A stretch of DNA of 35,509 nucleotides. Origin: Dicyema japonicum. Its lineage: Eukaryota; Animalia; Dicyemida. A model generated the notes under the pieces. The model was not told where the DNA came from. It saw nothing but the letters and a program-made list of their open reading frames with translations, and did not search any database. Position numbers and translations under genes: made by a program. The stretch lies in contig RDEW01000013.1 in the NCBI GenBank assembly GCA_011109175.1, positions 559,989 to 595,497 of the forward strand, in the 5' to 3' direction. How positions within the stretch are numbered: the first letter of the stretch is position 1; each line of letters starts with the position of its first letter. Shown piece by piece: positions 6,800-35,509 of the stretch.

Positions 6800-7983
6800 G
6801 GTTGGCTGTTTGTGTTTATTTTGCAAAAGATTCACCAGAAAAGTCACTGTGGATATAACGCTCTGGACGCTCTTTGTCGTAGGAGATTTTGCGCTATCAA
6901 AAGAACTGTTCGTCAAGTTGTAAAAGACTACAATGTTTGCAACTTTGCAGTGCCTTTCAAGCAGTCCCTCTATCGAAAATGATGGTTTCGGATGACAAGA
7001 GTTGATAAGGCACATTCGAAAGGCTGTGTTTTTATACAATCAAACGCCTCACTCATCCATAGGTAAATTTGTGCTTTTATTTTTTTGTAGGTGTTAGTCC
7101 GTTTCTGAGATTCCGGGCCATTGTGAAAAATGTGAAGACAACCTGGAAAGTGTGGATAATATTGCTGAATTAACAGAGCCAGACGGTAAAGACAGCCCCG
7201 AACATATAGTAAAGGTTTTTGTCTATAATTATACAAAAGGTGATTACAAATTTGATTTTCCTCGTGTAGACTTGAATTATAAAAGGATGAATAAAAAGAA
7301 GGGAGTGCATCGATGGAAATATGAATTTAACATTAGAGATAGTGTATTCAATTTATAATTACTTAAAAGGTTTGTATTCAGAAGGACTATGGAACTGATC
7401 CTTCACTACGTCTGCAAAGATTTGAGCATCCCTAAGGAGATGCTGTCACTATTGTTGCTAAATTGTCTAACAATTTTGTCAATGTTAAAGATAGTGAGGG
7501 AATTGTTAAGAAGGTGCATTCTAAACGCCTTAAAAATATAATTATAATTTTTGCTTTGAAATAATTGATTATTAAAAGCGGGAAAAAAAGTCAAACGGAA
7601 AAAAGGTCAAATTTTAATTTGGAAACAAAAATAAAATCATCATTTCTGGTTATTTTCAATTAAACTTAAAATAAGATTTTAAAGACTTTATTTTTTTTAC
7701 AAAAAAATTCAATAAAAATTTGCATTTGACTTTTTTTCCGTTTTTCCCATTTTTCTTATGCTAATTTTACGAAAAATGGAAAAAAGGTCAAAAATTATAA
7801 GCCATGTTTATATTTTTTGGAAAAATGTCAATTTTTTTAATTTCACCCAAAACTTCAAAAAAAGACTTTTGGTTTAACCACGATATAACATCAAAATTAA
7901 ACCCCATGATGCGGTTTTAACCACAATTTTACCCCCAAAAAACTAAAACCTATTTTTTAATTTAGATTAGTTTGACTATGACA
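6800..7983 (+). mobile_element. Decayed Ginger/TDD-like integrase DNA transposon (copy 1) with micro-introns at 7063-7090 and 7344-7369
   Basis: HHCC-like HQKSHCG...VVKDYNVC; AVFLYNQTPHSSIG|VSPF after removing a 28-nt GT-AG intron; RDS|VCIQKDYGTDPSLRL...KRLK after removing a 26-nt intron. The catalytic core is deleted. Repeated GGAAAAAA(A/G)GTCAAA motifs at 7580-7830 precede a possible ...GACA terminus at 7983. Confidence 0.75.
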
Positions 7984-8104
7984 AAGGTCCCCTTGATGCG
8001 ATTTTTTTAGATTCCAAGCGATTCCTTCTAGAGTTTGTTCCACAGTTCTATTTCCGTCTGCTCGATCAACACATATTTTGCACAGTCTAATTTGGCGTTC
8101 AGTA

Positions 8105-8302
8105 CTTTTTTTATTTTTTCGTTTTTTTTGTTTTTATTTCAACTATATATTTATCTATTGTTAGTCAGTATTTCCTTTTTTTGGAATAGCATATATTACT
8201 GTGATTACAGTATCATTTAATGGAATTCTAATAGTATATATTTGTTTAAAAATAGTTGGTGACATTGAAAATGTTCCGTCCATATATAATATGTCCGACA
8301 TA
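8105..8302 (-). pseudogene. MULE (Mutator-like) transposase remnant
   Basis: Minus strand reads MSDILYMDGTFSMSPTIFKQIYTI, matching the MULE first-Asp motif DGTF..P..F.Q.YTI. Homologous to the remnants at 23.5 and 31.3 kb. Confidence 0.65.
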
Positions 8303-8476
8303 GCCAGAAGTTTCAAATTCTTTACAGTTCCAAAAATTCAAATCGAGTCAACCGTATATTAATTTTTTGAGGTTTTCAGGGATATCTGATTGGTAGATTT
8401 TCCATGTTAGGTTCTTCCTCGGCACAGAGTCGATAGTAATTACAATTGAATTTCTTTTATTCGTTATCCAAGAACA

Positions 8477-10351: not shown

Positions 10352-10649
10352 CTATTCAGAGTCAGATTCTAAAATGGAGGTTGAACTTGAATCAGAGGAT
10401 TCAGAAACATCTTCACTAGAATCACTCGAATTTTCCTCAACTATTTGTCTTTTTGGTTCTGATAACGCCTTTTCCTCTTCTTTCTTCTTTTTGTCAATAA
10501 GTTCACCCATAGAAGGACGATGGAGAATTTTTCGTTTGTTTTTGCATTCATATGTCCAATGCTCTTTTGATTGACACTTCTGACAGTAGGCTTTTGAATC
10601 AGATCTTTAATTAATATAAATAATACTTTCTCTTTTCTATTCCAACCAT
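10352..10649 (-). CDS. ZCCHC10: ZCCHC10-like CCHC zinc-knuckle protein, 91 aa, two exons (10649-10627, 10604-10352), 22-nt intron at 10626-10605
   Basis: Spliced product [52 protein letters not shown]...SSDSSEDVSESSDSSSTSILESDSE*. CQKC....HWTYEC..KRK.LHRPS plus the Ser/Asp/Glu-rich tail match the ZCCHC10 family as I recall it. The intron is GTATTATTTATATTAATTAAAG; no frameshifts or internal stops. Confidence 0.8.
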
Positions 10650-14370: not shown

Positions 14371-15518
14371 CCACTCTCAATTGTGCAGATAAACATCAAC
14401 GGAATCAAAAGCAAAATTCTCGAACCTTTCATTAAACAACAAAACATTGACATGATTTTACTTCAAGAAAGCTAACTCACCTACCCCGCATTTTCCAGGA
14501 TACCACTGCATCCGCCTGGACCGATCAAACCGTTGTGGTAAGTCTCCTCATCATTATAACAGATAACATTCGATTTACGGACATCTCAGCCAAACTACAA
14601 TCACTAATAAACGATGGGATCACGGAAATATCTGGAATATCAATTACAAGTGGATTCGGGACTCTCAACATTACAACATCTACGTCCCCCCGCCATCTTT
14701 TTGCCCAAAAGGATTCTGTCTAAACCTAACCAAATTAAATAAGTTCGGAAACCTGATATTGTGTGAGATTTTAATGCTAAACATTTAGCCTGGTTAAAAA
14801 CACATCCAGCAGACTCAAAAAGATTATCCTTATTAAACAAGCTCACCTCTCTGACTATCTTTAACAACCCCAGGAAGCACACTAGGACTCCTTACAAAAA
14901 AAACGAAGCATCAACTTCCCCAGACATTACCTTCTCTTCCCCAAACCTTGCACCGGACACATCTTGGACGGTGCATTATGGATTGTCTTCCGACCACAAT
15001 CCAAGCATTATTCGAATCAAAAAAATTCTTTACCACAGGAAAAAGACTGTTTCATTTTTCAACTATAAAAAAGCAAACTGGAATGACTATTCAAAATACA
15101 TCGATAAGCTCTACTAAACCTTGACATGATATTCCCCACAATAGATGAAGCTATTGACTTTTTAAACAAAACTATTCTCATGGCGGGAGAACCTTTATTC
15201 CGCGTGGATCATTTAAATTCTACAATGAAAAACTCGATCAGAACACCAAATCATTAATTAAAGAAAGGAATCGCCTGAAAAGACATGTACCTTCCTTTCC
15301 CGGACAGAAAAATCAAACAAAAACTCTCAATGACGAAATATCTAAAAGGATTAGAAAGCTGAAGCCAACAAATGGAACAAACTAGTATCTTCCCTTCCAT
15401 TTCATAAATCTGCTCAGGATATGAAGAGAAATTAAACATTTTATCCTAAAAGGAAATTTTAAAAGACAACAGACGGATCAACACAGTCTTAACAAGCTCA
15501 TGAAATATTACGCCAGTA

Positions 15519-17260
15519 TGTCACATGGGCCAAGCGTTACCTATGGGCAGCCTGTTACATTAACCTTGAACCAAGATTAACTTCAATTAATTTTATAACC
15601 TTGAACCAAGATTAACTTCAATTAATTTTATAAATGATTTATTAACCACAAAAAATTAAATTTAAGTAACTTTTTTTAGTCTACTCATTAATACAGTCGA
15701 TATTTCTCCTTTCGAATTTTTTATCTATCAAATTAAACTATTTAAAACTACCTCCACGCGATTATTCGATAAAATATTAATTATTTCTGCAACTGGATAA
15801 TACTGAGACTCAAACTTATCTAGTCGCAATGAGGGATTTGTTCCAAAGTCCTTTTTAGCCCGAACCTATTAATGTTTTTGATTCATACTTTATCTCCCAT
15901 GTTAAAAGTATATTTACTATTATGAACATTCATTTTCCTGTTCATAGCTTTGTAATAATTAGAATTTTCTTCAATCGATTTAATTTCGAAGTTGAATCTC
16001 TTCGCATTCGGACGCAAATTATCTGACTGAAGGTTATCTAGATATAAATTTTTTAAATCAAACTACGTGATTTTTCAATAGATTCTGGAGTCGAACAATT
16101 AAGCAAATCGTCAATTTGTTCTGGAATCGCACACTCATCACTTAAATTATCTAAGTCATAATGATATAAGTATAACCATTAATTATTGAATTTATTCCCT
16201 TAATTCCTCGATATCTTTCGAAAGGACTTTCGTTAGAAAATGAATGGACCGATATGTTGTAACTGTAGACAGCACTTTCTAATTTATCAAGCCACTTTTT
16301 TTCACTGTTATCCAGCATTTTTGACAACTTCCTCGTGATCGTCTGATTAAATCTTTCGACAATTCCTTGTGCTCGTGGATTGTTAGGCCTTCTGTGAATT
16401 TGCTTAATGTTAAAATCTTCGCAAAGTTTTGTTATTTCTTGATTTTTAAATACAGAACCATTGACCGACTGAAGAAATTTACATAGCCCATTCAGGCGGA
16501 ACAAAGATCTTAAGTTTTCACATACTTCTTTACCAGCGAAAATTTGCAGACTTCACAATTTCGAATGACTTTTCTGATAATCACATTCTTTACAGTGAAG
16601 TATCTTTGTCGACATTCATACTCAATTTTATTGACTCCTCCGTGTGAAAACTCGTGCAACGATTTCGCAACATGCTCCATTTCGGTTTCATTATCCAGGG
16701 ATATGACTAACTTGGGATCAGTTGATTTAAGATACAGTCTAAAATTATTGAAAATTTACAATACCTGTCATTGATAATAGAAAAATTCTCTATCTTCTTT
16801 ACAAGCCTATATTTTCGGTGCCTCGGAAGGTTTTCGGGAAATTTATCATGCAAAGCATCTTTTAAAGTTTGATATTCAACGCAATCTTTCACAAAACCCT
16901 TGTAAGAAGCCATTGCAACAAAATAATCTTCCATGCTATAAATCACGCTAGAAATCTAGGTTTACCGCTATAAAAAAATAAAATCTTTATAATCATAACA
17001 TTTATAAATAAAAAACTAATTTAACAGGATTAAATCAAGATATAAATCGGATATACAAAATTAAATGTCGGATAATCCAATGAGGGACTCATCCTCACCT
17101 TTGTCGGTCTGGGATCACTTAGTTAGATGAGAACTTTTATTTCTTTCTTTTGACCCAGTGATCCGACATTAATAATAATAATGTCGGATAATCAAAAGAC
17201 CTTTTCAAGGTCGAAAAAATGTAACAGGCTGCCCATGCGTTACGCGCCGCCCATGTGACA
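15519..17260 (-). mobile_element. Ginger/TDD-like integrase DNA transposon, 1742 bp, 43-bp TIRs, 5-bp TSD, five micro-introns, internally deleted
   Basis: TIRs at 15519-15561 and 17218-17260 (37/43 match, TGT...ACA); TSD CAGTA at 15514-18 and 17261-65. Spliced CDS from ~16934 to 15662 has HHCC (HEFSHGG...CEVC), QSVNG, GIVERFNQT and GDK|VRAKKDF. Introns at 16764-16739, 16176-16151, 16066-16038, 15888-15866 and 15751-15725. Confidence 0.9.
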
Positions 17261-17291
17261 CAGTATAAGCCACAAACCTTTCAGGAAAATN

Positions 17292-17500
17292 ATGAGGGAC
17301 TCATCCTCATCTTTGTCGGTCTGGGATCACTTAGTTAGATGAGAACTTTTATTTCTTTCTTTTGACCCAGTGATCCGACATTAATAATAATAATGTCGGA
17401 TAATCAAAAGACCTTTTCAAGGTCGAAAAAATGTAACGGCTGCCCATGCGTTACGCGCCGCCCATGTGACACAGTATAAGCCACAAACCTTTCAGGAAAA
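17292..17500. other. Duplicate of 17081-17290 beginning at an N (probable scaffolding overlap)
   Basis: A near-identical ~210-bp copy starts immediately after the N at 17291. Confidence 0.75.
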
Positions 17501-17722
17501 TGGATGGGCCTTCTTTATCCTCAATAAGACCTAAGAGAACACAGCCGATTAACTTTATCTCACATTCAGATGTCAGTGAGGGTTTGAAGAGATTGAATTC
17601 TTCCCTATCACGTGGGCCTGATTCTATCCCTGGTATTTTACTAATACACCTTGGACCTATCGCGATTGATGCAATCACAGTGATTTTCAACTATTCAATA
17701 AACACGAATACAATTCCGACTA

Positions 17723-18064: not shown

Positions 18065-19850
18065 ACTCGTTGCTAATTAAAAACTAATTAAAAAGGGAGA
18101 ATCCAACGAGTTTGTCCTGGTTGATAGGGTCTGGTTTAACGAGACACCATATGTCTTCTCTTTGAATTATTGACCCCTTGCATCCAACAAGAATTATTTT
18201 TCAAGAAATGCAATATTTCTTCAATGGATCTTGCACGTCTCTCATCACTAGGCGGTAATTTAGACTTTAAATCAAGTCCATATGCCAGTTTAATAGCATA
18301 TCTCCTCGATTTATCGAGAAGCTCTACAAGAGTACTTCTCTCATCACTTTCAACCATCCTTGGAAGCCATAAATCAAGAATGGTTCTATACAAGCTGTCT
18401 ACACATAAAGAAAAGTTTCCGGACTCAATTAAAAACGTAGAAGCGATTTCAACATAGCCGTAACTTTTTTCTTCTTTTTATTGATATAATTAATGAAAAA
18501 ACCCTTCGAGTTCACACAAACACCAAGATATTGTAACTGTTCCATGAATTTGATGGATCCAATGTTAATACAAATCTTTGATTTATTCTTGTAATTCACA
18601 ATCCATGAAGCAGTACACTTTTCAAGAGATAAACCTTTATCTCTAATTTAATTCTTTCGATATGTGTCGAAACACGTTTCCGGGAAATCGATCTATTAAT
18701 ACTAAGATCGAGCTAAAGAATATCATCGGCATATACTAACATTTTCGAATTTAGGTGTTCAAACTTCGGGATGTCACACATAACACAATTGAATAAAAGA
18801 AGTCTAAAGATAGACCCTTATGTAACCCCTCTTTTTAACAAAATTTTCTTCAATATATGATCTCCAACACGTATAAAAAATTCTCTACAGAAAGAAAATC
18901 CTTCATCCAAACTTGAGCCTTGCTCCCAACATTAAAATTTGACAAAGTTTTCAACAACCCAGCATTCCAGACGTTATCACAGCCTTTAATATGTCTAGAC
19001 ATACGGCCGTAAGACATTCTCTATTCTTCTTAGCAACACATTTAAAATTTGATAATATTGAGAAACAATCTCCAGTCCCTCTAGTGGGACGAAAACCCAC
19101 TGATCATCGAAATCTGTTGTCTTCAACGTATTTTGATAATCTGTTGAAAATGTTTTTTTCCATAATTTTCGATATACTGCATATTAGGCTTATTGGCCTT
19201 CTTCGGGATCATCCGTACAAAAGACTTCTTCCAAGTAGAAGGAACATGTCCAGAACACCACGAAGAATTAAATAAAGCCCATAACGTTTTCAATAATGGT
19301 ATTCCAGCATTTTTTAGACAGTCTGGGGGATAAAATCCCAACCCGGAGCTTTATTTTTGCATCCATTAATAGCAAGAATTATCTCCTCCATAGTAACCGT
19401 ACCACACAAAGGCCCCTCCACAAGCGGGGATGGCTCCTCTTCAAGAAAACTAGTTTGTATCCTCGGGGAATAATTAACAGAGGATCCAATTCTTGTACCT
19501 CTGCGAGCTGTTGTCTTTAGACATCTGGAACTTTTTCTTTTGGGATCCAAGAGCCGTCACCAGACTTGAGATTTATCTCTTCACCTTTCTTATCCAAAGT
19601 TTCCAGAATTTAGGATTATTACGATAGAGTTTGGAGCATTCTCTCCTCCATCTATCTTCTTCAATACTTTTTGATACTTCGATCAATTCACTCTTTATAG
19701 ACTTGATCCTTTCTTTGAGATGGTTAGAATCTTGTGGATCCCAACATCGCTTCAGTTTTCTTCCAAATATCTCATTTCACGAAGCAAAAGACATTGCTCT
19801 CCATTCATTAATTTATTTCTATGCGGAGAAAGTAATATTTAAAAAAAAAT
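18065..19850 (-). mobile_element. APE-class LINE, copy A (linker, RT and C-terminus), decayed, with native 3' end
   Basis: Minus strand W...CSKL...FWKLW linker, KAPGWDFIP, WKKSFVRMIPK, PQG- and ADD-type motifs, and C-terminal ELLDKSRRYAIKLAYGL. TAATTAG-type tail near 18080-18090. Confidence 0.8.
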
Positions 19851-19859
19851 AAATATTTT

Positions 19860-22390
19860 TAAATTAAAATAATAATAACGAGTAAATTAACTAATTAACC
19901 GTATTTTGATCCAGATTGTTGGTAATTCCTCTTCTTTTCTTAGAAGAAGAGTGTGCCATAACCTCCCTGTTACTCCGCATCTCCACATCAGATTCAGTCA
20001 AAATATCTCCGTTAGAGTCCAGTGGGCTGTCCTCACGGCATGCTAGTTTTACAAGTTGGAAAATAGCAGAGGAGTACTCTTCATCGTACACCTTCATCCC
20101 ATGCTTATGTTCAATGAGCATACTTTCGAGCGTTCTCTTCAGCACAACCGAATGAATGTAAGTCCTTGTTGATTCTTCAATAGATAATTTATCCTTAGGA
20201 TTCTTGAATTATCTATTATTACTCGAGAATCCCCGACCTTCGCAAACACACAGTCGACTGTTTTTCCAAACTTTTANTTGATCCTTTCTTTGAGATGGTT
20301 AGAATCTTGTGGATCCCAACATCGCTTCAGTTTTCTTCCAAATATCTCATTTCACGAAGCAAAAGACATTGCTCTCCATTCATTAATTTATTTCTATGCG
20401 GAGAAAGTAATATTTAAAAAAAATAAATATTTTTAAATTAAAATAATAATAACGAGTAAATTAACTAATTAACCGTATTTTGATCCAGATTGTTGGTAAT
20501 TCCTCTTTTTTTCTTAGAAGAAGAGTGTGCCATAACCTGTTATCTCCACATCAGATTCAGTCAAAATATCTCCGTTAGAGTCCGATGGGCTGTCCTCACG
20601 GCATGCTAGTTTTACAAGTTGGAAGGTAGCAGAGGAGTACTCTTCATCGTACACCTTCATCCCATGCTTATGTTCAATGAGCATACTTTCGAGCGTTCTC
20701 TTCAGCACAACCGAATGAATGTAAGTCCTTGTTGATTCTTCAATAGATAATTTATCCTTATGATTCTTGAATTATCTATTATTACTCGCAGAATCCCCGA
20801 CCTTCGCAAACACACAGTCGACTGTTTTTCCAAACTTTTAAGAAACTGGAAAAGAATTAATTCGCTCTTTAATGAAATCGAGGTAAGTCCTCTTCCAAAA
20901 GTATTCCTGTCCAAATACAGCTTCTCTTTATTTGCAGGTTTGAAGTGCAACTTGAGTGACGTAAGCAGTTGCAGTATTTGTTGGTCAATATCATCAAATT
21001 CGTAATTCAATATTAATTAATCCTATATAATAGTTAGGGACATTGCGTATTCATTTATTGCACGAAATAATTCACAGAATTTTGAAATCATTGTTATTTT
21101 TCTTTTAACATTTTCAAGTATGGACTCCATAACTTTGCTTTAAGAACATTACTTCCCCCGTTTTCAAAATCACCCAAATATCGATATCCACTGAATCCTT
21201 CCAGAGTCTCACAACATGATAACGATTTTACATTAGAAAATGACTTTTCCGAATTCATCTCCAAGCCGGCAACATAAAGGAAATCGCGAACAACTTTCAT
21301 CATTTTAATAACAGTATCTTCTTTCAGCCCAAATATCTTTAGGTCATCAATGAATAACAAATGATTTGTAACCAATTCTTCTTCCATCTAACTGGAGATT
21401 TACAGTCCACTTCTTGACTATTGTCTTTACAAAGTTAACAATCCAACGGGGTATTCGAATCCAAAACATGAAATAAAAATTCATGGTCAACAGAATCAAA
21501 GGCCTTCTTCACATCCACCCAAGCAGAATAAAGGGCGTTTCCATACTCCTTATTTATGCATTGATTAATAAGGGCCTGTTCCTTAGCGCCCTGACAATGT
21601 TTCCTCGTTCCCAGCTGATTGTCAGATAATAGACCAAACGAATCCACAAAATCTGAGAGTTTGGAATTTCACATCCACCCAAGCAGAATAAAGGGCGTTT
21701 CCATACTCCTTATTTATGCATTGATTAATAAGGGCCTGTTCCTTAGCGCCCTGACAATGTTTCCTCGTTCCCAGCTGATTGTCAGATAATAGACCAAACG
21801 AATCCACAAAATCTGAGAGTTTGGAATTAACACATTTGGTAATGAGTTTATATAAAGTTGGCATACACGTTATAGGACGTAAATCTTTTGGAGTCTCACA
21901 ATCATCCTTTTTAGTAATTAAGTAGGTTATTCCAGTATAAAACCAACTTTCAGACATATATTCCCCATTAATAATATGGTTAATCTCAGTACATAAAAAG
22001 CCATGTAAAGATTCCGTTTTCTTTATAAGTACGAGGATCCAGCCACCTCTAGGTATCCTTCCAAATCTTTGTTTCGTGGCAAGAAAAATCTGAGATACCC
22101 ACTCAGCTTCAGAGACACAGTGGTCACTTCAATAATGACAGCTAGTGAATGCTAGTTGGTTTTGGCACCGATGTTGATATTAGTTCTTGTGACGGTCCTG
22201 CTTCTACTATTCTATCTTTATTTGATTTTGCAGAAAGGCCCTTAGGATTCGATTTCTCTGTATGATTAGAAACGGACATGCACAACCCCACAACAACAAA
22301 ACTATCTTTATTTGATTTTGCAGAAAGGCCCTTAGGATTCGATTTCTCTGTATGATTAGAAACGGACATGCACAACCCCACAACAACAAA
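19860..22390 (-). mobile_element. Internally deleted RLE-type retrotransposon (unit 1), with N-associated duplication at ~20278-20850
   Basis: RPITCMPTLYKLIT, NQLG, WVDVKKAFDSV, HLLFIDDLK, YRYLG, KLYLDRNTFGRGL and the terminal KRTLESM...QNTVN* with a TAATTAGTTAAT tail. The domains abut across deletions. Confidence 0.85.
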
Positions 22391-23519
22391 AATTATTATT
22401 TTCCTCCTTTCATAATAATCAAGATAGTTTAAAATAACATTTCATAATTTACATCCAAACTATCGATATCCATATGATTTAAAATTTTCAATTCTCGACT
22501 TCAGAAAACCTATTGAACCAGGTATCACCAATCTGAGCGAATCCCCAAGACCACACGTTACCAAAACAGAATTTTGGAAATAAGTTGAAAATTATCAAGT
22601 TCGACTTTGCCATCCAATATTGTCGGGAGTGCGGTAGACACACTCCATGCCGTAGAAAAAAGATGAGAGCAAATGAGAAGTAAAAAGCCTTACGAGACCG
22701 ATTTGAGTTCTATACGATTACGTTCGAGACAACTTGAGGAATAAGTGGAAAATCGCTTCGCTTCCTAAAGATACTTGGACGTTAAAATCAATTTAAAAAA
22801 AATTGAATTGCATGCAAATTAAATTTCGATAAATGATTCATCTTAAAGGTGAAGAATCCAAATGCTTCAATTGATCCAATAATTCCGAATAACACGAGTT
22901 CCAAGTCTGCATGAACTGTTACAACAAGGTAATAAATTTCATTAAAATCTGACATGAAATTTAATAAAACAACAGTAACTCCTCCAATTTGTCAATAATC
23001 GCCTTAAGGCACTTAAGAATTTCAAAAAAACTCCCTCAAAGCACTCTCAATTACAGAGGCAGATTCAGACGACAGCTGTAATTATTATAAGCGCGAAAAA
23101 TAAATCGTTAGGTCACTATATAAAAACGAAAAACACCCAAGAATGCCATTTCGTGTGTAATGTCGCTGCTTTTGATACTTTTCCTGACACATTCCCATAT
23201 TTCACAGACAAGGTCGGCAAGAAAGGTCTTATTCTGTCGTATGGTAGTCTGTTATTTCATAACTAATGGTTTGTCGACTTTTTCTGGTGTGGATCGAGTC
23301 AGGTTGTACATAAGTTATACGGAGGTTGCACCAAAGTGGTGGGACCTCTGGAAATAACTCATGTACGCTTCCAGCAAAACAAGACTCGCAATTTTCTTGT
23401 AGGAATTCGTGAGGTTTTTTAATGAATACTGAAGATAACTGACAATCTTCTAATATACAAGGTTACTGCCAAGAAACTGAAATTGTCCAATCTGAGTTTG
23501 ATTATGGGGAATAATCTCT

Positions 23520-23760
23520 TCATTTTTTCGTTTTTTTCTGTTTTTATTTCAACTATATATTTATCTATTGTTTGTCAGTATTTTCTTTTTTTGGAATAGC
23601 ATATTTACTGCGATTACAAAATCATTTAATGGAAATCAAATAGTATATATTTGTTTAAAAATAGTTGGTGACATTGAAAATGTTCAGTCCATATATAATA
23701 TGTCCGACATAAATATTTTCCCAAAAATAGATTTTCCCCTCTAATTGGGTATATTCTTTT
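23520..23760 (-). pseudogene. MULE transposase remnant (unit 1)
   Basis: MSDILYMD*TFSMSPTIFKQIYTI*; two of the conserved codons are mutated to TGA. Confidence 0.6.
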
Positions 23761-23789
23761 ACAAAGTAAAACTACACTTTTAGTTAAAT

Positions 23790-26653
23790 AGCTATGGTAT
23801 GCAGTACAATTTATATTCATTTTAATGAATACGATTAGAAATTCTTGATCATTTTATAATGTAATAAGTTTTTCAAAACTAATTGTAATTGTTATGTAAT
23901 AGGTTTTTTCCACTTAAATGTATTCAATTAGAGATTAAAGATCATTACATGATCAAGGATTGTTATTCTACACTATTCTTGACTTGATGTGCACTATAGC
24001 ATTTATCAACATTATTCTAATGAATTAGATAATTATGATTATTACACAATGACTAAAGGTACTACTTGAGACTTGATACACTTTTTTGTCAAACTAAACT
24101 AGATCCCTATTGTATGATTTGCAATACAAGTGATATACATATTATTGAATACCATTTGAAATTCTTGATCATTTTATTATGTAATAAGTTATTCAACCTA
24201 CTTGATCGTTATGCAATTTAAGTTTTTTCAACAAGATGTATTCTATTAGAGATATTCAAGATCATTACATGATCAAGGATAGTTATTCTTCACTTTTTGT
24301 GACTTGGCATAGATTTTATATTCCATACGAATTTTTTTATTAATATATTGATTTCATGATGTAATAAGTTATTCAACCTACTTATTGATTGTTATGCAAT
24401 TTAGGTTTTTTTCATAAATGATCAAGGATAGTTATTCTTCACTTTTTGTGACTTGGCATAGATTTTATATTCCATACGAATTTTTTTATTAATATATTGA
24501 TTTCATGATGTAATAAGTTATTCAACCTACTTATTGATTGTTATGCAATTTAGGTTTTTTTCATAAGATGTATTCTATTCGAGAGATTCAAGAACATTAC
24601 ATGATCTAAGATAGTTACTCTACACTTTTTTGACTTGGCATAGATTATATTTTCTATCCAATTAATTTATTAAGTTATTGATTTCATTATGTAATAAGTT
24701 ATTCAACCTACTTGATATTATGCAATTTAGGTTATTTAACAAGATGTATTCTATTCGAGAGATTCAAAGATCATTACATGATTGAGGATAGTTACACTTC
24801 ACGATTCGTGACTTGATCTGCACTAAAAGCAGTTTCAATATTATTGTAATGAATTAGATAATTATGATTATTACACAATGACTAAAGGTATTCTAATACG
24901 TGAGACTCGATACACTATTTTGTCATACTAAACTATATCCCAAATAGTATGATTTGCATTACAAGTGATATACATATTATTATTGAATAACATTTGAAAA
25001 TCTTGATCATTTTATTATGTAATAAGTTATTCAACCTACTTGATCGTTATGCAATTTAGTTTTTTAACAAAATGTATTCTATTAGAGAGATTCGGAACAT
25101 TACATTATTAAGTATAGTTACTCTACACTTTTTGTGACTTGGCATAGATATATTTTCTATCCAATTAATTTATTAAGTTATTGATTACATTATATAATAA
25201 GTTATTCAACCTACTTATTGTTATGCAATTTAGGTTTTTTTCATAAGATGTATTCTATTAGAGAGATTCGAGATCATTACTCTACACGATTCGTAACTTG
25301 ATATGCACTTAAGCAGTTATCAATATTATTGTAATGAATTAGATAATAATGATTATTAAACAATGACTAAAGGTACTACTTGAGACTTGATACACTTTTT
25401 GTCAAACTAAACTAGATCCCAATTGTATGATTTGCAATACAAGTGATATACATATTATTGAATACCATATGAAATTCTTGATCATTTTATTATGTAATAC
25501 GTTATTCAACCTACTTGATCGTTATGCAATTTTAGGTTATTTAACAAGATGTATTCTATTCGAGAGATTCAAGATCATTACATGATTCAGGATAGTTACT
25601 CTACACGATTCGTGACTTGATATGCACTAAAGCAGTTATCAATATTATTGTAATGAATTAGATAATTATGATTATTACAAAATGACTAAAGATTTTCTAC
25701 TACTTGATACACTTTTTGTCAAACTAAACTAGATCCCAATGTATGATTTGCAATACAAGTGATATACATATTATTGTATACCATTTGAAATTCTTGATGT
25801 TTTATTATGTAATAAGTTATTCAACCTGTTGATCGTTATGCAATTTAGGTATTTTCCAAGATGTATTCTATTCGAGAGATTCAAAATAATTAAATGATCA
25901 GGGAAAGTTGCTCTACACGATTCGTGACTTGATATGGACAAAAGCAGTTATCAATGTTATTGTAATGAATTAGATAATTATGATTATTACACAATGACTA
26001 AAGATTTTCTACTACTTGATACACTATTTTGTCATACTAAACTATATCCCAAATAGTATGATTGCATTACAAGTGATATACATATTATTGAATAACATTT
26101 GAAAATCTTGATCATTTTATTATGTAATAAGTTATTCAACCTACTTGATCGTTATGCAATTTAGGTTATTTAACAAGATGTATTCTATTCCAGAGATTCA
26201 AGATCATTACATGATTCAGGATAGTTACTCTACACGATTCGTGACTTGATATGCACTAAAGCAGTTATCAATATTATTAATGAATTAGATAATTATGATT
26301 ATTACACAATGACTAAAGATTTTCTACTACTTGATACACTTTTTGTCAAACTAAACTAGATCCCAATTGTATGATTTGCAATACAAGTGATATACATATT
26401 ATTGTATACCATTTGAAATTCTTGATCATTTTATTATGCAATAAATTATTCAACCTAATTCTTGATCGTTATGCAATTTAAGGTTATTTTACAAGATGTA
26501 TTCTATTCGAGAAATTCAAGATATTTACATGATTCAGGGAAGATACTCTACACGATTCTTGACTGGATATGCAGAAAAGCATTTATCAATGTTATTGTAA
26601 TGAATTAGATAATTAAGATTATTACACAGTGACTACAGGTACTACTTGAGACT
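23790..26653. repeat. AT-rich satellite array with ~317-bp and ~178-bp monomers
   Basis: The core TAATAAGTTATTCAACCTACTTGATCGTTATGCAATTTAGG recurs at two alternative spacings. Confidence 0.95.
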
Positions 26654-28385
26654 GGTTAACGAGACACCATATGTCTTCTGTTTAACGAGACACCATATGT
26701 CTTCTCTTTGAATTATTGACCCCTTGCATCCAACAAGAATTATTTTTCAAGAGGTGCAATATTTCTCAATGGATCTTGCACGTCTCTCATCACTAGGCGG
26801 TAATTTAGACTTTAAATCAAGTCCATATGCCAGTTTAATAGCATATCTCCTCGATTTATCGAGAAGCTCTACAAGAGTACTTCTCTCATCACTTTCAACC
26901 ATCCTTGGAAGCCATAAATCAAGAATGGTTCTATACAAGCTGTCTACACATAAAGAAAAGTTTCCGGACTCAATTAAAAACGTAGAAGCGATTTCAACAT
27001 AGCCGTAACTTTTTTCTTCTTTTTAATGATATAATTAATGAAAAAACCCTTCGAGTTCACAACAAACACCAAGATATTGTAACTGTTCCATGAATTTGAT
27101 GGATCCAATGTTAATACAAATCTTTGATTTATTCTTGTAATTCACAATCCATGAAGCAGTACACTTTTCAAGAGATAAACCTTTATCTCTAATTTAATTC
27201 TTTCGATATGTGTCGAAACACGTTTCCGGGAAATCGATCTATTAATACTAAGATCGAGCTAAAAGAATATCATCGGCATATACTAACATTTTCGAATTTA
27301 GGTGTTCAAACTTCGGGATGTCACACATAACACAATTGAATAAAAGAAGTCTAAAGACAGACCCTTATGTAACCCCTCTTTTTAACAAAATTTTCTTCAA
27401 TATATGATCTCCAACACGTATAAAAAATTCTCTACAGAAAGAAAATCCTTCATCCAAACTTGAGCCTTGCTCCCAACATTAAAATTTGACAAAGTTTTCA
27501 ACAACCCAGCATTCCAGACGTTATCACAGCCTTTAATATGTCTAGACATACGGCCGTAAGACATTCTCTATTCTTCTTAGCAACACATTTAAAATTTGAT
27601 AATATTGAGAAACAATCTCCAGTCCCTCTAGTGGGACGAAAACCCACTGATCATCGAAATCTGTTGTCTTCAACGTATTTTGATAATCTGTTGAAAATGT
27701 TTTTTTCCATAATTTTCGATATACTGCATATTAGGCTTATTGGCCTTCTTCGGGATCATCCTTACAAAAGACTTCTTCCAAGTAGAAGGAACATGTCCAG
27801 AACACCTAGAAAAATTAAATAAAGCCCATAACGTTTTCAATAATGGTATTCCAGCATTTTTGAAGACAGTCAGGGGAATAAAATCCCAACCCGGAGCTTT
27901 CTTTTTGCATCCATTAATAGCAAGAATTATCTCCTCCATAGTAATCGTACCACACAAAGGCTCCTCCACAAGCGGGGATGGCTCCTCTTCAAGAAAACTA
28001 GTTTGTATTTTCGGGGAATAATTAACAGAGGATCCAATTTTTGTACCTCTGCGAGTTGTTGTCTTTAGACATCTGGAACTTTTTCTTTTGGGATCCAAGA
28101 GCCGTCACCAGACTTGAGATTTATCTCTTCACCTTTCTTATCCAAAGTTTCCAGAATTTAGGATTATTACGATAGAGTTTGGAGCATTCTCTCCTCCATC
28201 TATCTTCTTCAATACTTTTTGATACTTCGATCAATACACTCTTTATAGACTTGATCCTTTCTTTGAGATGGTTAGAATCTTGTGGATCCCAACATCGCTT
28301 CAGTTTTCTTCCAAATATCTCATTTCACGAAGCAAAAGACATTGCTCTCCATTCATTAATTTATTTCTATGCGGAGAAAGTAATA
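26654..28385 (-). mobile_element. APE-class LINE, copy B (chimera of copies C and A)
   Basis: The left end shares its junction, 27-bp duplication and GAGGTGC with copy C. From ~26799 rightwards it matches copy A at the diagnostic sites checked. Confidence 0.8.
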
Positions 28386-28394
28386 TTTAAAAAA

Positions 28395-30115
28395 AATAAA
28401 TATTTTTAAATTAAAATAATAATAACGAGTAAATTAACTAATTAACCGTATTTTGATCCAGATTGTTGGTAATTCCTCTTTTTTTCTTAGAAGAAGAGTG
28501 TGCCATAACCTGTTATCTCCACATCAGATTCAGTCAAAATATCTCCGTTAGAGTCCGATGGGCTGTCCTCACGGCATGCTAGTTTTACAAGTTGGAAAAT
28601 AGCAGAGGAGTACTCTTCATCGTACACCTTCATCCCATGCTTATGTTCAATGAGCATACTTTCGAGCGTTCTCTTCAGCACAACCGAATGAATGTAAGTC
28701 CTTGTTGATTCTTCAATAGATAATTTATCCTTAGGATTCTTGAATTATCTATTATTACTCGCAGAATCCCCGACCTTCGCAAACACACAGTCGACTGTTT
28801 TTCCAAACTTTTAAGAAACTGGAAAAGAATTAATTCGCTCTTTAATGAAATCGAGGTAAGTCCTCTTCCAAAAGTATTCCTGTCCAAATACAGCTTCTCT
28901 TTATTTGCAGGTTTGAGGTGCAACTTGAGTGACGTAAGCAGTTGCCGTATTTGTTGGTCAATATCATCAAATTCGTAAGGTTCAATATTAATTAATCCTA
29001 TATAATAGTTAGGGACATTGCGTATTCATTTATTGCAGAAATAATTCACAGAATTTTGAAATCATTGTTATTTTCCTCTTAACATTTTCAAGTATGGACT
29101 CCATAACTTTGCTTTAAGAACATTACTTCCCCCGTTTTCAAAATCACCCAAATATCGATATCCACTGACTCCTTCCAGAGTCTCACAACATGATAACGAT
29201 TTTACATTAGAAAATGACTTTTCCGAATTCATCTCCAAGCCGGCAACATAAAGGAAATCGCGAACAACTTTCATCATTTTAATAACAGTATCTTCTTTCA
29301 GCCCAAATATCTTTACGTCATCAATGAATAACAAATGATTTGTAACCAATTCTTCTTCCATCTAACTGGAGATTTACAGTCCACTTCTTGACTATTGTCT
29401 TTACAAAGTTAACAATCCAACGGGGTATTCGAATCCAAAACATGAAATAAAAATTCATGGTCAACAGAATCAAAGGCCTTCTTCACATCCACCCAAGCAG
29501 AATAAAGGGCGTTTCCATACTCCTTATTTATGCATTGATTAATAAGGGCCTGTTCCTTAGCGCCCTGACAATGTTTCCTCGTTCCCAGCTGATTGTCAGA
29601 TAATAGACCAAACGAATCCACAAAATCTGAGAGTTTGGAATTAACACATTTGGTAATGAGTTTATATAAAGTTGGCATACACGTTATAGGACGTAAAACT
29701 TTTAAAGTCTCACAATCATCCTTTTTAGTAATTAAGTAGGTTATTCCAGTATAAAACCAACTTTCAGACATATATTCCCCATTAATAATATGGTTAATCT
29801 CAGTACATAAAAAGCCATGTAAAGATTCCGTTTTCTTTTTAAGTACGAGGATCCAGCCACCTCTAGGTATCCTTCCAAATCTTTGTTTCGTGGCAAGAAA
29901 AATCTGAGATACCCACTCAGCTTCAGAGACACAGTGGTCACTTCAATAATGACAGCTAGTGATTGCTAGTTGGTTTTGGCACCGATGTTGATATTAGTTC
30001 TTGTGACGGTCCTGCTTCTACTATTCTATCTTTATTTGATTTTGCAGAAAGGCCCTTAGGATTCGATTTCTCTGTATGATTAGAAACGGACATGCACAAC
30101 CCCACAACAACAAAA
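28395..30115 (-). mobile_element. Internally deleted RLE-type retrotransposon (unit 2)
   Basis: Same motifs and deletion junctions as unit 1, without the 160-bp and 90-bp duplications. Confidence 0.85.
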
Positions 30116-31244
30116 ATTATTATTTTCCTCCTTTCATAATAATCAAGATAGTTTAAAATAACATTTCATAATTTACATCCAAACTATCGATATCCATATG
30201 ATTTAAAATTTTCAATTCTCGACTTCAGAAAACCTATTGAACCAGGTATCACCAATCTGAGCGTCTCCAAGACCACACGTTACCAAAACAGAATTTTGGA
30301 AATAAATTGAAAATTATCAAGTTCGACTTTGCCATCCTACATTGTCGGGAGTGCGGTAGACACACTCCATGCCGTAGAAAAACGATGAGAGCAAATGAGA
30401 AGTAAAAAGCCTTACGAGACCGATTCGAGTTCTATACGATTGTGGTCGAGACAACTTGAGGAATAAGTGGAAAATCGCTTCGCTTCCTAAAGATACTTGG
30501 ACGTTAAAATCAATTTAAAAAAAATTGAATTGCATGCAAATTAAATTTCGATAAATGATTCATCTTAAAGGTGAAGAATCCAAATGCTTCAATTGATCTA
30601 ATAATTCCGAATAACACGAGTTCCAAGTCTGCATGAACTGTTACAACAAGGTAATAAATTTCATTAAAATCTGACATGAAATTTAATAAAACAACAGTAA
30701 CTCCTCCAATTTGTCAATAATCGCCTTAAGGCACTTAAGAATTTCAAAAAAACTCCTTCAAAGCACTCTCAATTACAGAGGCAGATTCAGACGACAGCTG
30801 TAATTATTATAAGCGCGAAAAATTAATCGTTAGGTCACTATATAAAAACGAAAATCACCCAAGAATGCCATTTCGTGTGTAATGTCGCTGCTTTTGATAC
30901 TTTTCCTGACACATTCCCATATTTCACAGACAAGGTCGGCAAGAAAGGTCTTATTCTGTCGTATGGTAGTCTGTTATTCCATAACTAATGGTTTGTCGAC
31001 TTTTTCTGGTGTGGATCGAGTCAGGTTGTACATAAGTTATACGGAGGTTGCACCAAAGTGGTGGGTCCTCTGGAAATAACTCATGTACGCTTCCAGCAAA
31101 ACGAGACTCGCAATTTTCTTGTAGGAATTCGTGAGGTTTTTTAATGAATACTGAAGATAACTGACTATCTTCTAATATACAAGGTTACTGCCAAGAAACT
31201 GAAATTGTCCAATCTGAGCTTGATTATGGGGAATAATCTCTTCA

Positions 31245-31490
31245 TTTTTTCGTTTTTTTCTGTTTTTATTTCAACTATATATTTATCTATTGTTTGTCAG
31301 TATTTTCTTTTTTTGGAATAGCATATTTACTGCGATTACAGAATCATTTAATGGAAATCTAATAGTATATATTTGTTTAAAAATAGTTGGTGACATTGAA
31401 AATGTTCCGTCCATATATAATATGTCCGACATAAATATTTTCCCAAAAATAGATTTTCCCCTCTACTTGGGTATCTTCTTTTACAAAGTA
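31245..31490 (-). pseudogene. MULE transposase remnant (unit 2)
   Basis: MSDILYMDGTFSMSPTIFKQIYTIRFPLND on the minus strand. Confidence 0.65.
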
Positions 31491-31509
31491 AAACTACACT
31501 TTTTGGCAA

Positions 31510-34406
31510 ATAGTTATGGTATGCATTACATGATCTATTCATTTTAATGAATACCATTAAAAATTCTTGATCATTTTATTATGTAATAAGTTTTTCAAAA
31601 CTACTTGTAATTGATATGCTATAGGTTGTTTTCACATTAATCTATTCAATTAAAGATTTAAGATCATTACATGATCAAGGATAGTTATTCTACACTATTA
31701 TTGACTTGATGAGCACTATATCAATTATCAATATTATTGTAATGAATTAGATAATTATGTTTATTACACAATGACTAAAGGTACTACTTGAGACTTGATA
31801 CACTTTTTAGTCATGCTACACTAGATCCCAATTGTATGATTTGCATTACAAGTGATATACATATTATTGAATACCATTTGAAATTCTTGATCATTTTATT
31901 ATGTAATAAGTTATTCAACCTACTTGATCTTTATGCAATTTAGGTTTTTTCCATAAGATGTATTCTATTCGAGAGATTCAAGATCAATACATGATCAAGG
32001 ATAGTTATTCTACACTTTTTGTGACTTGGCATAGATTTTATTTTCGATACAAATTTTTTTATTAAGTTATTGATTTCATGTTGTAATAAGTTATTCAACC
32101 TACTTGTTGATCGTTATGCAATTTAGGTTTTTTCAACAAGATGTATTCTATTCGAGAGATTCAAGATCATTACATGATCAACGATAGTTATTCTACTATT
32201 TGTGACTTGGCATATATTATATTTTCTTCCTATTAATTTTATTGAGTTATTGATTACATTATACAATAAGTTATTCAACCTACTTGATCGTTATGCAATT
32301 TAGGTTTTTAACAAAATGTATTCTATTCGAGAGATTCAAGATCATTACATGATCAACGATAGTTATTCTACCCTTTTTTGACTTGGCATAGATTATATTT
32401 TCTATCCAATTAATTTATTAAGTTATTGATTACATTATATAATAAGTTATTCAACCTACTTGATCGTTATGCAATTTAGGTTTTTTAACAAGATGTATTC
32501 TATTCGAGAGATTCAAGATCATTACAAGATTGAGGATAGTTACACTTCACGATTCGTGACTTGATCTGCACTAAAGCAGTTATCAATATTATTGTAATGA
32601 ATTAGATCATTATGATTATTACACAATGACTAAAGGTATTCTAATACTTGAGACTCGATACACTATTTTGTCATACTAAACTATATCCCAAATACTATGA
32701 TTTGCATTACAAGTGATATACATATTATTGAATAACATTTGAAAATCTTGATCATTTTATTATGTAATAAGTTATTCAACCTACTTGATCGTTATGCAAT
32801 TTAAGTTTTTAACAAAATGTATTCTATTTGAGAGATTCAAGATCATTACATGAGCAACGATAGTTATTCTACACTTTTTGTAACTTGGCATAGATTATAT
32901 TTTCTATCCTATTAATTTATTAAGTTATTGATTACATTATGTAATAAGTTATTCAACCTACTTGATTGTTATGCAATTTACGTTTTTTCAACAAGATGTA
33001 TTCTATTAGAGAGATTCGAGATCATTACTCTACACGATTCGTAACTTGATATGCACTTAAGCAGTTATCAATATTATTGTAATGAATTAGATAATTATGA
33101 TTATTACACAATGACTAAAGGTACTACTTGAGACTTGATACACTTTTTTGTCAAACTAAACTAGATCCCAATTGTATGATTTGCAATACAAGTGATATAC
33201 ATATTATTGAATACCATTTGAAATTCTTGATCATTTTATTATGTAATACGTTATTCAACCTACTTGATCATTATGCAATTTAGGTTATTTAACAAGATGT
33301 ATTCTATTCGAGAGATTCAAGATCATTACATGATTCAGGATAGTTACTCTACACGATTCGTGACTTGATATGCACTAAAGCAGTTATCAATATTATTGTA
33401 ATGAATTAGATAATTATGATTATTACACAATGACTAAAGATTTTCTACTACTTGATACACTTTTTTGTCAAACTAAACTAGATCCCAATTGTATGATTTG
33501 CATTACAAGTGATATACATATTATTGTATAACATTTGAAATTCTTGATCATTTTATTATGTAATAAGTTATTCAACCTACTTGATCGTTATGCAATTTAG
33601 ATTATTCAACAAGATGTATTCTATTAGAAAGATTCAACATCATTACATGATCAACGAAAGTTAGTCTACACGAGTCTTGATTTGATGTGCAGAATATCAT
33701 TTATCAATAATATTGTAATGAATTAGATAATTATGATTATTACACAATGACTAAAGGTATTCTACTACTTGATACACTTTTTTGTCATAATACACTAGAT
33801 CCCAAATAGTATAGTATGCATTACAAGTTATATACATAATAATGAATAGCATTTTAAATTCTTGATCATTTTATTATGTAATAAGTTATTCAACCTACTT
33901 GATCGTTATGCAATTTAGGTTATTTAACAAGATGTATTCTATTCGAGAGATTCAAGATCATTACATGATTCACGAAAGTTACTCTACACGATTCGTGACT
34001 TGATGTGCACTAAAGCAGTTATCAATATTATTGTAATGAATTAGATAATTATGATTATTACACAATGACTAAAGATTTTCTACTACTTGATACACTTTTT
34101 TGTCAAACTAAACTAGATCCCAATTGTATGATTTGCAATACAAGTGATATACATATTATTGTATACCATTTGAAATTCTTGATCATTTTATTATGTAATA
34201 CGTTATTCAACCTACTTGATCGTTATGCAATTTAGGTTATTTAACAAGATGTATTCTATTCGAGAGATTCAAGATCATTACATGATTCAGGATAGTTACT
34301 CTACACGATTCGTGACTTGATATGCACTAAAGCAGTTATCAATATTATTGTAATGAATTAGATAATTATGATTATTACACAATGACTAAAGGTACTACTT
34401 GAGACT
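31510..34406. repeat. AT-rich satellite array (second copy)
   Basis: Core spacings read off the sequence are about 180, 180, 176, 325, 177, 302, 317, 318 and 317 bp. Confidence 0.95.
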
Positions 34407-35509
34407 GGTTAACGAGACACCATATGTCTTCTGTTTAACGAGACACCATATGTCTTCCTCTTTGAATTATTGACCCCTTGCATCCAACAAGAATTATTTT
34501 TCAAGAGGTGCAATATTTCTTCAATGGATCTTGCACGTCTCTCATCACTAGGCAGTAATTTAGACTTTGAATCAAGTCCATATGCCAGTTTAATAAAATA
34601 TCTCCTTGATTTATCGAGAAGCTCTACAAGAGTACTTCTCTCATCATTTTCAAACCATCTTTGGAAGCCATAAATCAAGAATGGTTCTATACAAGCTGTT
34701 ACACATAAAGAAAAGTTTCCGGACTCAATTGGAAACGTAGAAGCGATTTCGACATTGCCATAGCTTTTTTCCTTTTTTTTGATATAATTAATGAAGGAAC
34801 CCTTCGAGTTGACACAAACACCGAGATATTGTAACTGTTCCATGCATTTAATCGCTCCAGTATTAATACAAATCTTTGATTTTTCTTGTAATTCACAATC
34901 CATGAAGTAGTACACTTTTCAAGAGATAAACCTTCATCTCAGCATTTAATTTTTCTATATGTGTTGAAACACGTTTTCAAGAAATCGATCTATTAATACT
35001 AAGATCGAGCAAAAGAACATCATCGGCATAAATAAGCATTTTCAAATTTAAGTGTTCAAACTTCGAGTTGTCACACATACGCATTTGAATAAGAGGGGAC
35101 TTAAGACAGACCCTTGTGGAACCCTTCTTTTCAACAAAATTTTCCACGATCTATGATCTCCAACACGTATAAAAGATTTTCTACCAGAGAGAAAATCCTT
35201 CATCCACACTAGAGCCTTGCTCCCAGCATTAAAATTTGACAAGTTTTCAATAACCCAGCATGCCAATCACTATCAAAAGCCTTTAATATGTCTAGACATA
35301 CGGCCGTAAGACATTCTCTATTCTTCTTAGCAACACATATAAAATTTGATATTATTGAGAAACAATTTCCAGTCCTTCTAGTGGGCGAAAACCCACCTTT
35401 CATCGAGAAGAAAATTGTTATTTTCAATATACTTTGATAATCTGTTGAAAATGATTTTTTCCATGATTTTCGATATACTGGATATCAGGCTATAGTTCTC
35501 TGGTACTGC
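34407..35509 (-). mobile_element. APE-class LINE, copy C (more diverged, runs off the window)
   Basis: GFSPTRRT, CLDILKAFDS, VPQGSVLSPLLF, IYADDV, QYLGV and the same C-terminus as copies A and B. Confidence 0.88.

Follow-up and report, generated by a model that had tools for sequence, protein, structure and literature searches.

The window, the whole 35,509-nt stretch of DNA analysed here, consists mostly of LINE debris with a GC content of 25–44% per kb. One of these LINEs is interrupted by a DNA transposon of 1,742 nt at positions 15519–17260, whose gene, introns and ends are listed in Table 1. The terminal inverted repeats (TIRs) are 43 nt long, complementary at 37 of 43 positions, with TGT...ACA ends and two ATGGGC motifs each, as the original prediction had described; the pair was also recovered by BLAST of the window against itself (E = 3e-7). 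The predicted 5-bp target-site duplication (TSD), CAGTA, is present on both sides, a match with a chance probability of about 1e-3. The LINE frame, which had been said to rejoin on excision, is restored when the element is removed together with 5 bp, and not with 0, 4 or 6 bp. Furthermore, contigs from three of four runs of one sample contain the empty site, joining 15513 to 17261 and skipping 1,747 nt, that is, 1,742 + 5 nt. These contigs may derive from other LINE copies or from an empty allele, both of which give the pre-insertion sequence. The TSD length is read from this one insertion, and none of four loci in assembly B8 that carry the element holds both ends. The target site CAGTA is unlike RTATAY, the AT-rich type of target that Ginger2/Tdd elements prefer; two flanks seen at single ends are AT-rich (too few sites to generalize).

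Several other features of the region were observed. A 29-nt palindrome lies at 17161–17189 in the 5′ subterminal region, and the enclosing segment of about 115–125 nt, within 17076–17203, is absent from the B8 copies and from one contig of run X8. Sequence 17080–17290 is repeated after a single N, most likely as an assembly (scaffolding) overlap and not as a second element; a second single N at 20277 also has repeats on either side (19703–20276 and 20278–20840), likely another assembly overlap. Segmental duplications (22302–27737 versus 30026–35491, 5.5 kb, 93%; 18134–20276 versus 26680–28813, 2.1 kb, 98%) include an AT-rich array with units of about 315 bp at roughly 23790–26650 and 31500–34400. 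Fragments with a MULE transposase-like motif lie at 7960–8340 (minus strand), with copies near 23519–23711 and 31241–31433. A reassigned genetic code is unneeded, since the LINE and host frames are readable under the standard code.

Table 1 Features of the transposon and of related sequences in the window
Feature	Position	Strand	Evidence
Second-family remnant (divergent, same clade)	6824–7540	+	Micro-introns at 7063–7090 and 7344–7369
Host gene, zinc knuckle, with 22-nt GT..AG intron at 10626–10605	10355–10649	-	Pfam zf-CCHC_3, E = 2e-12
Left TSD, CAGTA	15514–15518	.	Sequence, empty-site joint
TIR on 3′ side of gene, TGTCA...	15519–15561	.	Same end with other flank in L001
35-nt tandem duplication, 3′ subterminal region	15561–15630	.	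Without exact counterpart in L001
Last exon and stop codon	15662–15724	-	Alignment
Intron 5, 27 nt, phase 0	15751–15725	-	26 gap letters in X7, X8; 27 expected
Exon, KKDF C-terminal domain	15752–15865	-	Beta-rich, predicted SH3-like
Intron 4, 23 nt, phase 0	15888–15866	-	Exact join in X7, X8, X10
Exon, linker end to GDK	15889–16037	-	Alignment
Intron 3, 26 nt (donor 16063) or 29 nt (donor 16066, same frame)	16063–16038 or 16066–16038	-	
Exon, variable acidic linker	16064–16150	-	Alignment
Intron 2, 26 nt, phase 1	16176–16151	-	26 gap letters in X8 contig
Exon, second half of DDE core; second Asp mutated, Glu intact	16177–16536	-	56% identical to P0001
Junction of 230-nt deletion	16536–16537	-	Versus L001; contigs' loose ends at 16536
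Exon, HHCC zinc finger	16537–16738	-	Pfam Integrase_H2C2 over its cut-off (E = 2e-6)
Intron 1, 26 nt, phase 2 (28 nt in B8 copies)	16764–16739	-	Exact 26-nt gap in X7, X8
First coding exon, N-terminal extension	16765–16934	-	Aligns to homologue N-termini
Candidate 5′ UTR intron, 32 nt	16968–16999	-	GT..AG kept in 3 of 3 covering B8 loci
TIR on 5′ side of gene, ...TGACA	17218–17260	.	Same end with other flank in X6
Right TSD, CAGTA	17261–17265	.	Sequence, empty-site joint
Repeat of 17080–17290 after single N at 17291	17292–17501	.	Assembly-overlap candidate

A disabled transposase gene

The gene of the element runs on the minus strand from an ATG at 16934 to a stop codon at 15662. Removal of five introns yields an N-terminal part of 124 aa with the HHCC finger and a C-terminal part of 256 aa with the second half of the core; the core exon matches Pfam rve_3 (E = 2e-4) and rve (E = 6e-3), both below the cut-off. 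Relative to L001, a B8 copy that is 85% identical, 230 nt are missing between the two parts, and L001 holds there 181 coding nt and introns of 23 and 26 nt. The lost stretch includes the region of the first catalytic Asp, whose absence had been proposed from a deletion between CEVCK and EVCENL, and its loss shifts the frame. The reported change of the second catalytic Asp (QSVNG for QSDNG) is also real: the codon differs from that in contigs of all four runs of one sample, in each of which the summed depth of Asp-type contigs at 16464 equals the total depth. Because the Asp-type base carries all the depth in four of four runs, QSVNG is a private defect of the window copy. With a frameshifting deletion and a mutated second Asp, this copy is dead and, as claimed, non-autonomous; its earlier description as structurally complete holds for the ends of the element, and not for the gene.

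Micro-introns of the family

All five introns of the window copy are GT..AG, and four of them remove an in-frame stop, as foreseen, with intron 1 merely shifting the frame. The five proposed introns are very probably genuine, but they are not the full set: together with the two in the undeleted part of L001, the family has seven coding introns of 23–29 nt in about 1.3 kb, within a full length of about 1.95 kb. Intron 3, 26 or 29 nt long depending on the donor, is narrowed by loose ends of related contigs in X8 and X10, which fit a 26-nt excision from the 16063 donor.

Each proposed intron was scored against ten uninterrupted homologues, among 1,396 possible deletions per junction, and was the best GT..AG deletion at seven of seven junctions. 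No deletion of any kind scored better at three junctions (introns 1 and 4 and one L001 intron). Better-scoring deletions numbered 11 for intron 5 and 15 for the other L001 intron, and 41 and 130 for introns 2 and 3, both of which lie in the unalignable linker. Comparison of the window copy with the B8 copies shows GT and AG held in every intron while intron lengths differ by 1–4 nt. Indels fall in 5 of 160 intron columns versus 9 of 2,302 exon columns after one stretch of L001, misaligned to the tandem duplication, was dropped (raw counts, 8/184 and 11/2330). Exon dN/dS is 0.07 over 181 codons; substitution amounts to 10% in introns, 12% in exons and 43 of 112 synonymous sites, and the position of introns below the synonymous rate may reflect constraint or AT saturation.

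Contigs without introns are found in runs X7, X8 and X10, which come from a related organism in one study and are probably RNA. Eight of 11 listed runs, none of them on record as RNA, were compared with the window. Introns 1, 3 and 4 are absent exactly from these contigs, intron 2 is recovered by gap size (X8) and intron 5 approximately (X7 and X8). One X8 contig has 29 scattered gap letters near the candidate 5′ UTR intron. Introns 1 and 4 are retained in X6, X7 holds intron-retaining pieces besides intron-free ones, and no intron-skipping contigs occur among the matches listed for X1–X4. The intron-free joins in X7, X8 and X10 are strongly suggestive of micro-intron removal by a spliceosome.

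Introns of this size are also present in host genes. The zinc-knuckle gene at 10355–10649, presumably ZCCHC10-like, looks intact amid the LINE debris; a word-based protein search with its exon gave no match. A gene beside a B8 copy (L082 1010–1700, minus strand), which we take from its motifs to be uridine-kinase-like, has five introns of 25–28 nt in about 630 nt, as read by eye. Given these nearby genes with introns of 22–28 nt, the small intron size is a trait of the host genome and not of the element. Among animals, only Dicyema and the myxobolid myxozoans are described as having introns shorter than 30 nt, whose signals have shrunk to as little as GTa..AG (PMC13644364). The introns here are alike in length (22–29 nt), in GT(a)..AG ends and in occurring many per gene; however, those of the myxobolids and dicyemids lie in host genes, and our literature search returned no transposon case. 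For Dicyema japonicum, a GC content of 36.7%, a repeat fraction of 49%, numerous LINEs and 6.2 introns in each gene are reported (PMC6736024), values that agree with the LINE-dense window slightly better than the 29% of Henneguya. A paper on paramyxids, a further possible host group, yielded no intron lengths (PMC11069148). An origin of the introns from introners was considered but gained no support: similarity reached p ≤ 0.05 in 2 of 36 intron pairs, as chance predicts (one of the nine sequences was one base off).

Other copies and a second family

The family is multi-copy, with 9,109 contigs of run X1 on the element stretch, in many variants, and at least 12 matches in B8. All 12 matches listed in B8 for the 5′ portion of the element end short of the 5′ TIR, and none of three loci examined carries it. 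No intact copy was found among four B8 loci, all of which have stops, frameshifts or insertions; L082 and L083 are apparently the same insertion. The B8 matches listed sit on contigs of 37–669 kb in a 2.7-Gb invertebrate assembly, and the loci probably belong to an unrecognised parasite co-assembled with its invertebrate host. Internally deleted forms (15865–16042 and 16143–16536; one without intron 4) are well covered in X7, X8 and X10 and are possibly transcribed non-autonomous derivatives.

The window also contains the remnant of a second family, for which no TIR was found in the window. Its intron at 7344–7369, 26 nt and GT..AG, occupies the position of intron 4 with unrelated sequence; that at 7063–7090 lies at a position absent in the target element, and there is none at the position of intron 5. 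Among 80 distant metagenome loci, most lack a clean TIR pair. L029 (1509–4410, 5-bp TSD) and L045 (842–3603, 4-bp TSD) have TGT...ACA inverted ends and are integrase-like; these are further undescribed Ginger2/Tdd-like elements, at 24–28% identity too distant to represent the family.

Microsporidian relatives

Compared with 1.84 billion representatives, the element best matches a Dictyocoela roeselum protein of 458 aa, 56% identical in the core (E = 1e-33). An alignment of the spliced model with this protein over the entire length gives 44–45% identity; the model spans the full length of stand-alone proteins of 400–460 aa. A word-based protein search with the core exon gave no match. The top named matches in a profile search are from Dictyocoela, Nosema granulosis and Pseudoloma, followed by glomeromycete, rotifer and KRBA2/SCAND3-like proteins. 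The Dictyocoela, N. granulosis and Pseudoloma neurophilia proteins (for example KAG0418124.1 and KAG0442608.1) are like the element in identity (44–45% over both halves, 56% in the core), domain order and clade, but are apparently uninterrupted ORFs and carry the label ‘Gag-Pol’ in NCBI. The predicted structure of one relative, P0001 (mean pLDDT 71, linker unresolved), has a foamy-virus integrase as its best match (452 columns, E = 6e-21) and a beta-rich C-terminal domain.

In a 38-row tree, the window copy, L001 and the second remnant cluster with one unnamed protein and four from Dictyocoela (support 100/99). This clade sits in a 25-row group (91/96) in which seven of seven named members are microsporidian and 15 rows are unnamed. 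A topology that places the three rows with introns outside the remaining 22 is rejected (p-AU = 6e-6 under LG+G4, for a group picked after the tree was seen); a grouping on the seven named microsporidian rows was set aside for this test, because unnamed rows are interspersed. The second remnant falls beside the D. roeselum protein, with weak support (93/62), and apart from the target element; the elements may thus have entered twice independently. The integrase phylogeny that had been suggested as a check thus nests the element among apparently intronless Dictyocoela microsporidian transposases, in a tree without TDD-4 and Ginger2 references. A quick tree joins the clade with KRBA2-like proteins against LTR integrases (SH-aLRT 89). 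As the P0001 contig is 1,475 nt long, with 98 spare nt against the roughly 180 needed, it cannot hold seven introns, and the contigs of four others are undecisive; the intronless state of the microsporidian relatives is therefore forced in part, for P0001 alone. Intron-bearing relatives are under-sampled, because protein collections favour uninterrupted ORFs.

Classification

The original prediction described the Dictyostelium element TDD-4 as a TIR transposon with a retroviral-like integrase and introns. The original prediction of a Ginger/TDD-like TIR element agrees with the ends, the empty site, the domain matches, the multiple copies and the spliced contigs, and the element is likely of the Ginger2/Tdd cut-and-paste type, with membership probable. 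Neither LTRs nor gag-pol, the context that would have spoken for a different origin, were found around the element, whose terminal repeats are inverted, not direct. Ginger2/Tdd elements are defined by TGTNR ends, short TIRs, 4- or 5-bp TSDs, H2C2 and DDE domains and the lack of YPYY and GPY/F motifs (PMC2836005). TGTCA at both ends of our element fits TGTNR, and the alignment shows an H2C2 finger and a DDE core with no YPYY or GPY/F motif. The 5-bp TSD is as in TDD-4 and TDD-5 of Dictyostelium, whereas animal Ginger2 elements have 4 bp (PMC2836005). The 43-nt TIRs are below the shortest of the 45–297 bp in Table 2 of that paper, the full length of about 1.95 kb compares with 2.7–6.7 kb there, and the seven introns of 23–29 nt are a further difference, as is the KKDF/KDFD C-terminal domain, which is common to the microsporidian clade.

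Ginger1 elements are similar in their TGT termini, TIRs of 40–270 bp and GT-AG introns (0–4 per element), but have a 4-bp CCGG/CCGT TSD, YPYY, GPY/F and OTU/Ulp1 domains, none of which is seen here (PMC2836005). Where animal and fungal core homologues returned by the profile search bear a name, it is most often KRBA2/SCAND3-like, and KRBA2/SCAND3 has been tied to Ginger2 (PMC3575427). These proteins form a separate tree branch, however, and their matches extend over little more than the half of the query that holds the core. Three further types were rejected, their features not being those of this element: GingerRoot (6-bp TSD, mostly TA termini, TIRs of 100–150 bp, 3.9–12.9 kb; PMC6839031), Polinton/Maverick (6-bp TSD, AG termini, a DNA polymerase gene) and Gypsy LTR retrotransposons (direct LTRs, gag-pol with RT/RNase H).

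Apart from a note of Ginger in Anncaliia that relies on Pfam (PMC5751038), our literature search returned no account of the microsporidian clade as a family of transposons, and the myxozoan transposable element data given in PMC8855578 are totals only. No title or abstract was found that describes a micro-intron Ginger or a transfer of transposable elements from microsporidia to a micro-intron host; Repbase and supplements, where such elements may be listed, lay outside this search.

Origin of the element and its introns

We conclude with good confidence that the locus holds a dead copy, shortened by an internal deletion, of a multi-copy TIR transposon, likely Ginger2/Tdd, whose gene has seven host-sized micro-introns likely spliced by the host. 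That the locus is what remains of a Polinton or LTR-retrotransposon integrase is scarcely credible: although the nearest proteins are named ‘Gag-Pol polyprotein’ in NCBI and the predicted P0001 model has a retroviral-like fold, the terminal repeats are inverted, the full length is about 2 kb, the gene has its own ATG and stop, and true gag-pol proteins are on a distant tree branch. A Pfam scan of three named relatives (P0001, P0152 and P0154) detected integrase domains only, with no RT or RNase H. It is also very improbable that the ‘introns’ arose as insertions during the decay of a dead copy, with the intron-free contigs stemming from DNA copies that lack introns. In favour of this reading, the types of the runs that yielded those contigs are not on record, and intron substitution (10%) is not above that of exons (12%). 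However, all seven segments are GT..AG and 23–29 nt long, like host introns; GT and AG are held while length varies by 1–4 nt between copies, exon dN/dS is 0.07 with the segments in place, and one position recurs in the second family with unrelated sequence.

Vertical inheritance, with the host itself an undescribed intron-rich microsporidian or relative, would accord with the purely microsporidian names (7 of 7) in the 25-row clade, and short introns occur in microsporidia too (PMC13644364). We regard this as improbable in view of the five introns in about 630 nt of the gene beside the B8 copy: microsporidian introns are few and mutually similar (PMC10245619), whereas those here open with varied GTN and resemble one another at chance level (2 of 36 pairs at p ≤ 0.05). 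Less easily set aside, if still doubtful, is the explanation that the introns are old, that the microsporidian relatives lost them or took the element from an intron-bearing host, and that the nesting reflects biased sampling. Microsporidia are intron-poor (PMC10245619) and exchange transposable elements with animals in both directions (PMC4202319), intron 4 is common to two divergent families, and names are lacking for 15 of the wider clade's 25 rows. But the intron-bearing rows lie inside one Dictyocoela subclade, and since N. granulosis and Pseudoloma fall outside it, this account implies several complete intron losses. Nor does the cycle of a DNA transposon include an RNA stage through which seven introns could be shed, and at least two intron positions distinguish the two host families.

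The balance stands at about even for a history in which an intron-poor microsporidian was the source of the lineage and the introns were acquired in a new host. The fuller scenario, to which we give slightly less than an even chance, is that an intronless microsporidian transposon entered a micro-intron host, likely a dicyemid or myxobolid, and gained seven introns there, with sister families gaining other sets. Transfer followed by gain is favoured because the alternative requires several complete losses in a DNA element, and it stays near the midpoint because sampling is biased. Microsporidia are on record as hyperparasites of myxosporeans and dicyemids (PMC4150386).

In the mechanism that we propose, an intact copy would be transcribed and the host spliceosome would remove the seven tiny introns. 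The spliced mRNA would encode a transposase of about 440 aa, with an N-terminal extension, HHCC finger, DDE core and beta-rich C-terminal domain. By analogy with integrases, this protein would pair the TIRs, excise the element and join its CA-3′ ends to the target with a 5-nt stagger. Deleted copies that keep both TIRs, like the window copy, would be mobile only in trans.

Implications

The microsporidian ‘Gag-Pol’ protein clade has a member with DNA-transposon ends, and in micro-intron genomes such elements escape ORF-based annotation. If the proposed history is wrong, the finding is a new Ginger2/Tdd-like family with host-typical introns. A clear case of spliceosomal intron gain requires a gene with a known intronless ancestor. 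If the history is true, the microsporidian-derived transposase would supply that ancestor, and the many families and copies would let the gains be ordered and their mechanism be sought. The elements would then provide a natural experiment, both replicated and datable, on how foreign genes gain introns de novo, and would add a transfer route between co-occurring parasites.
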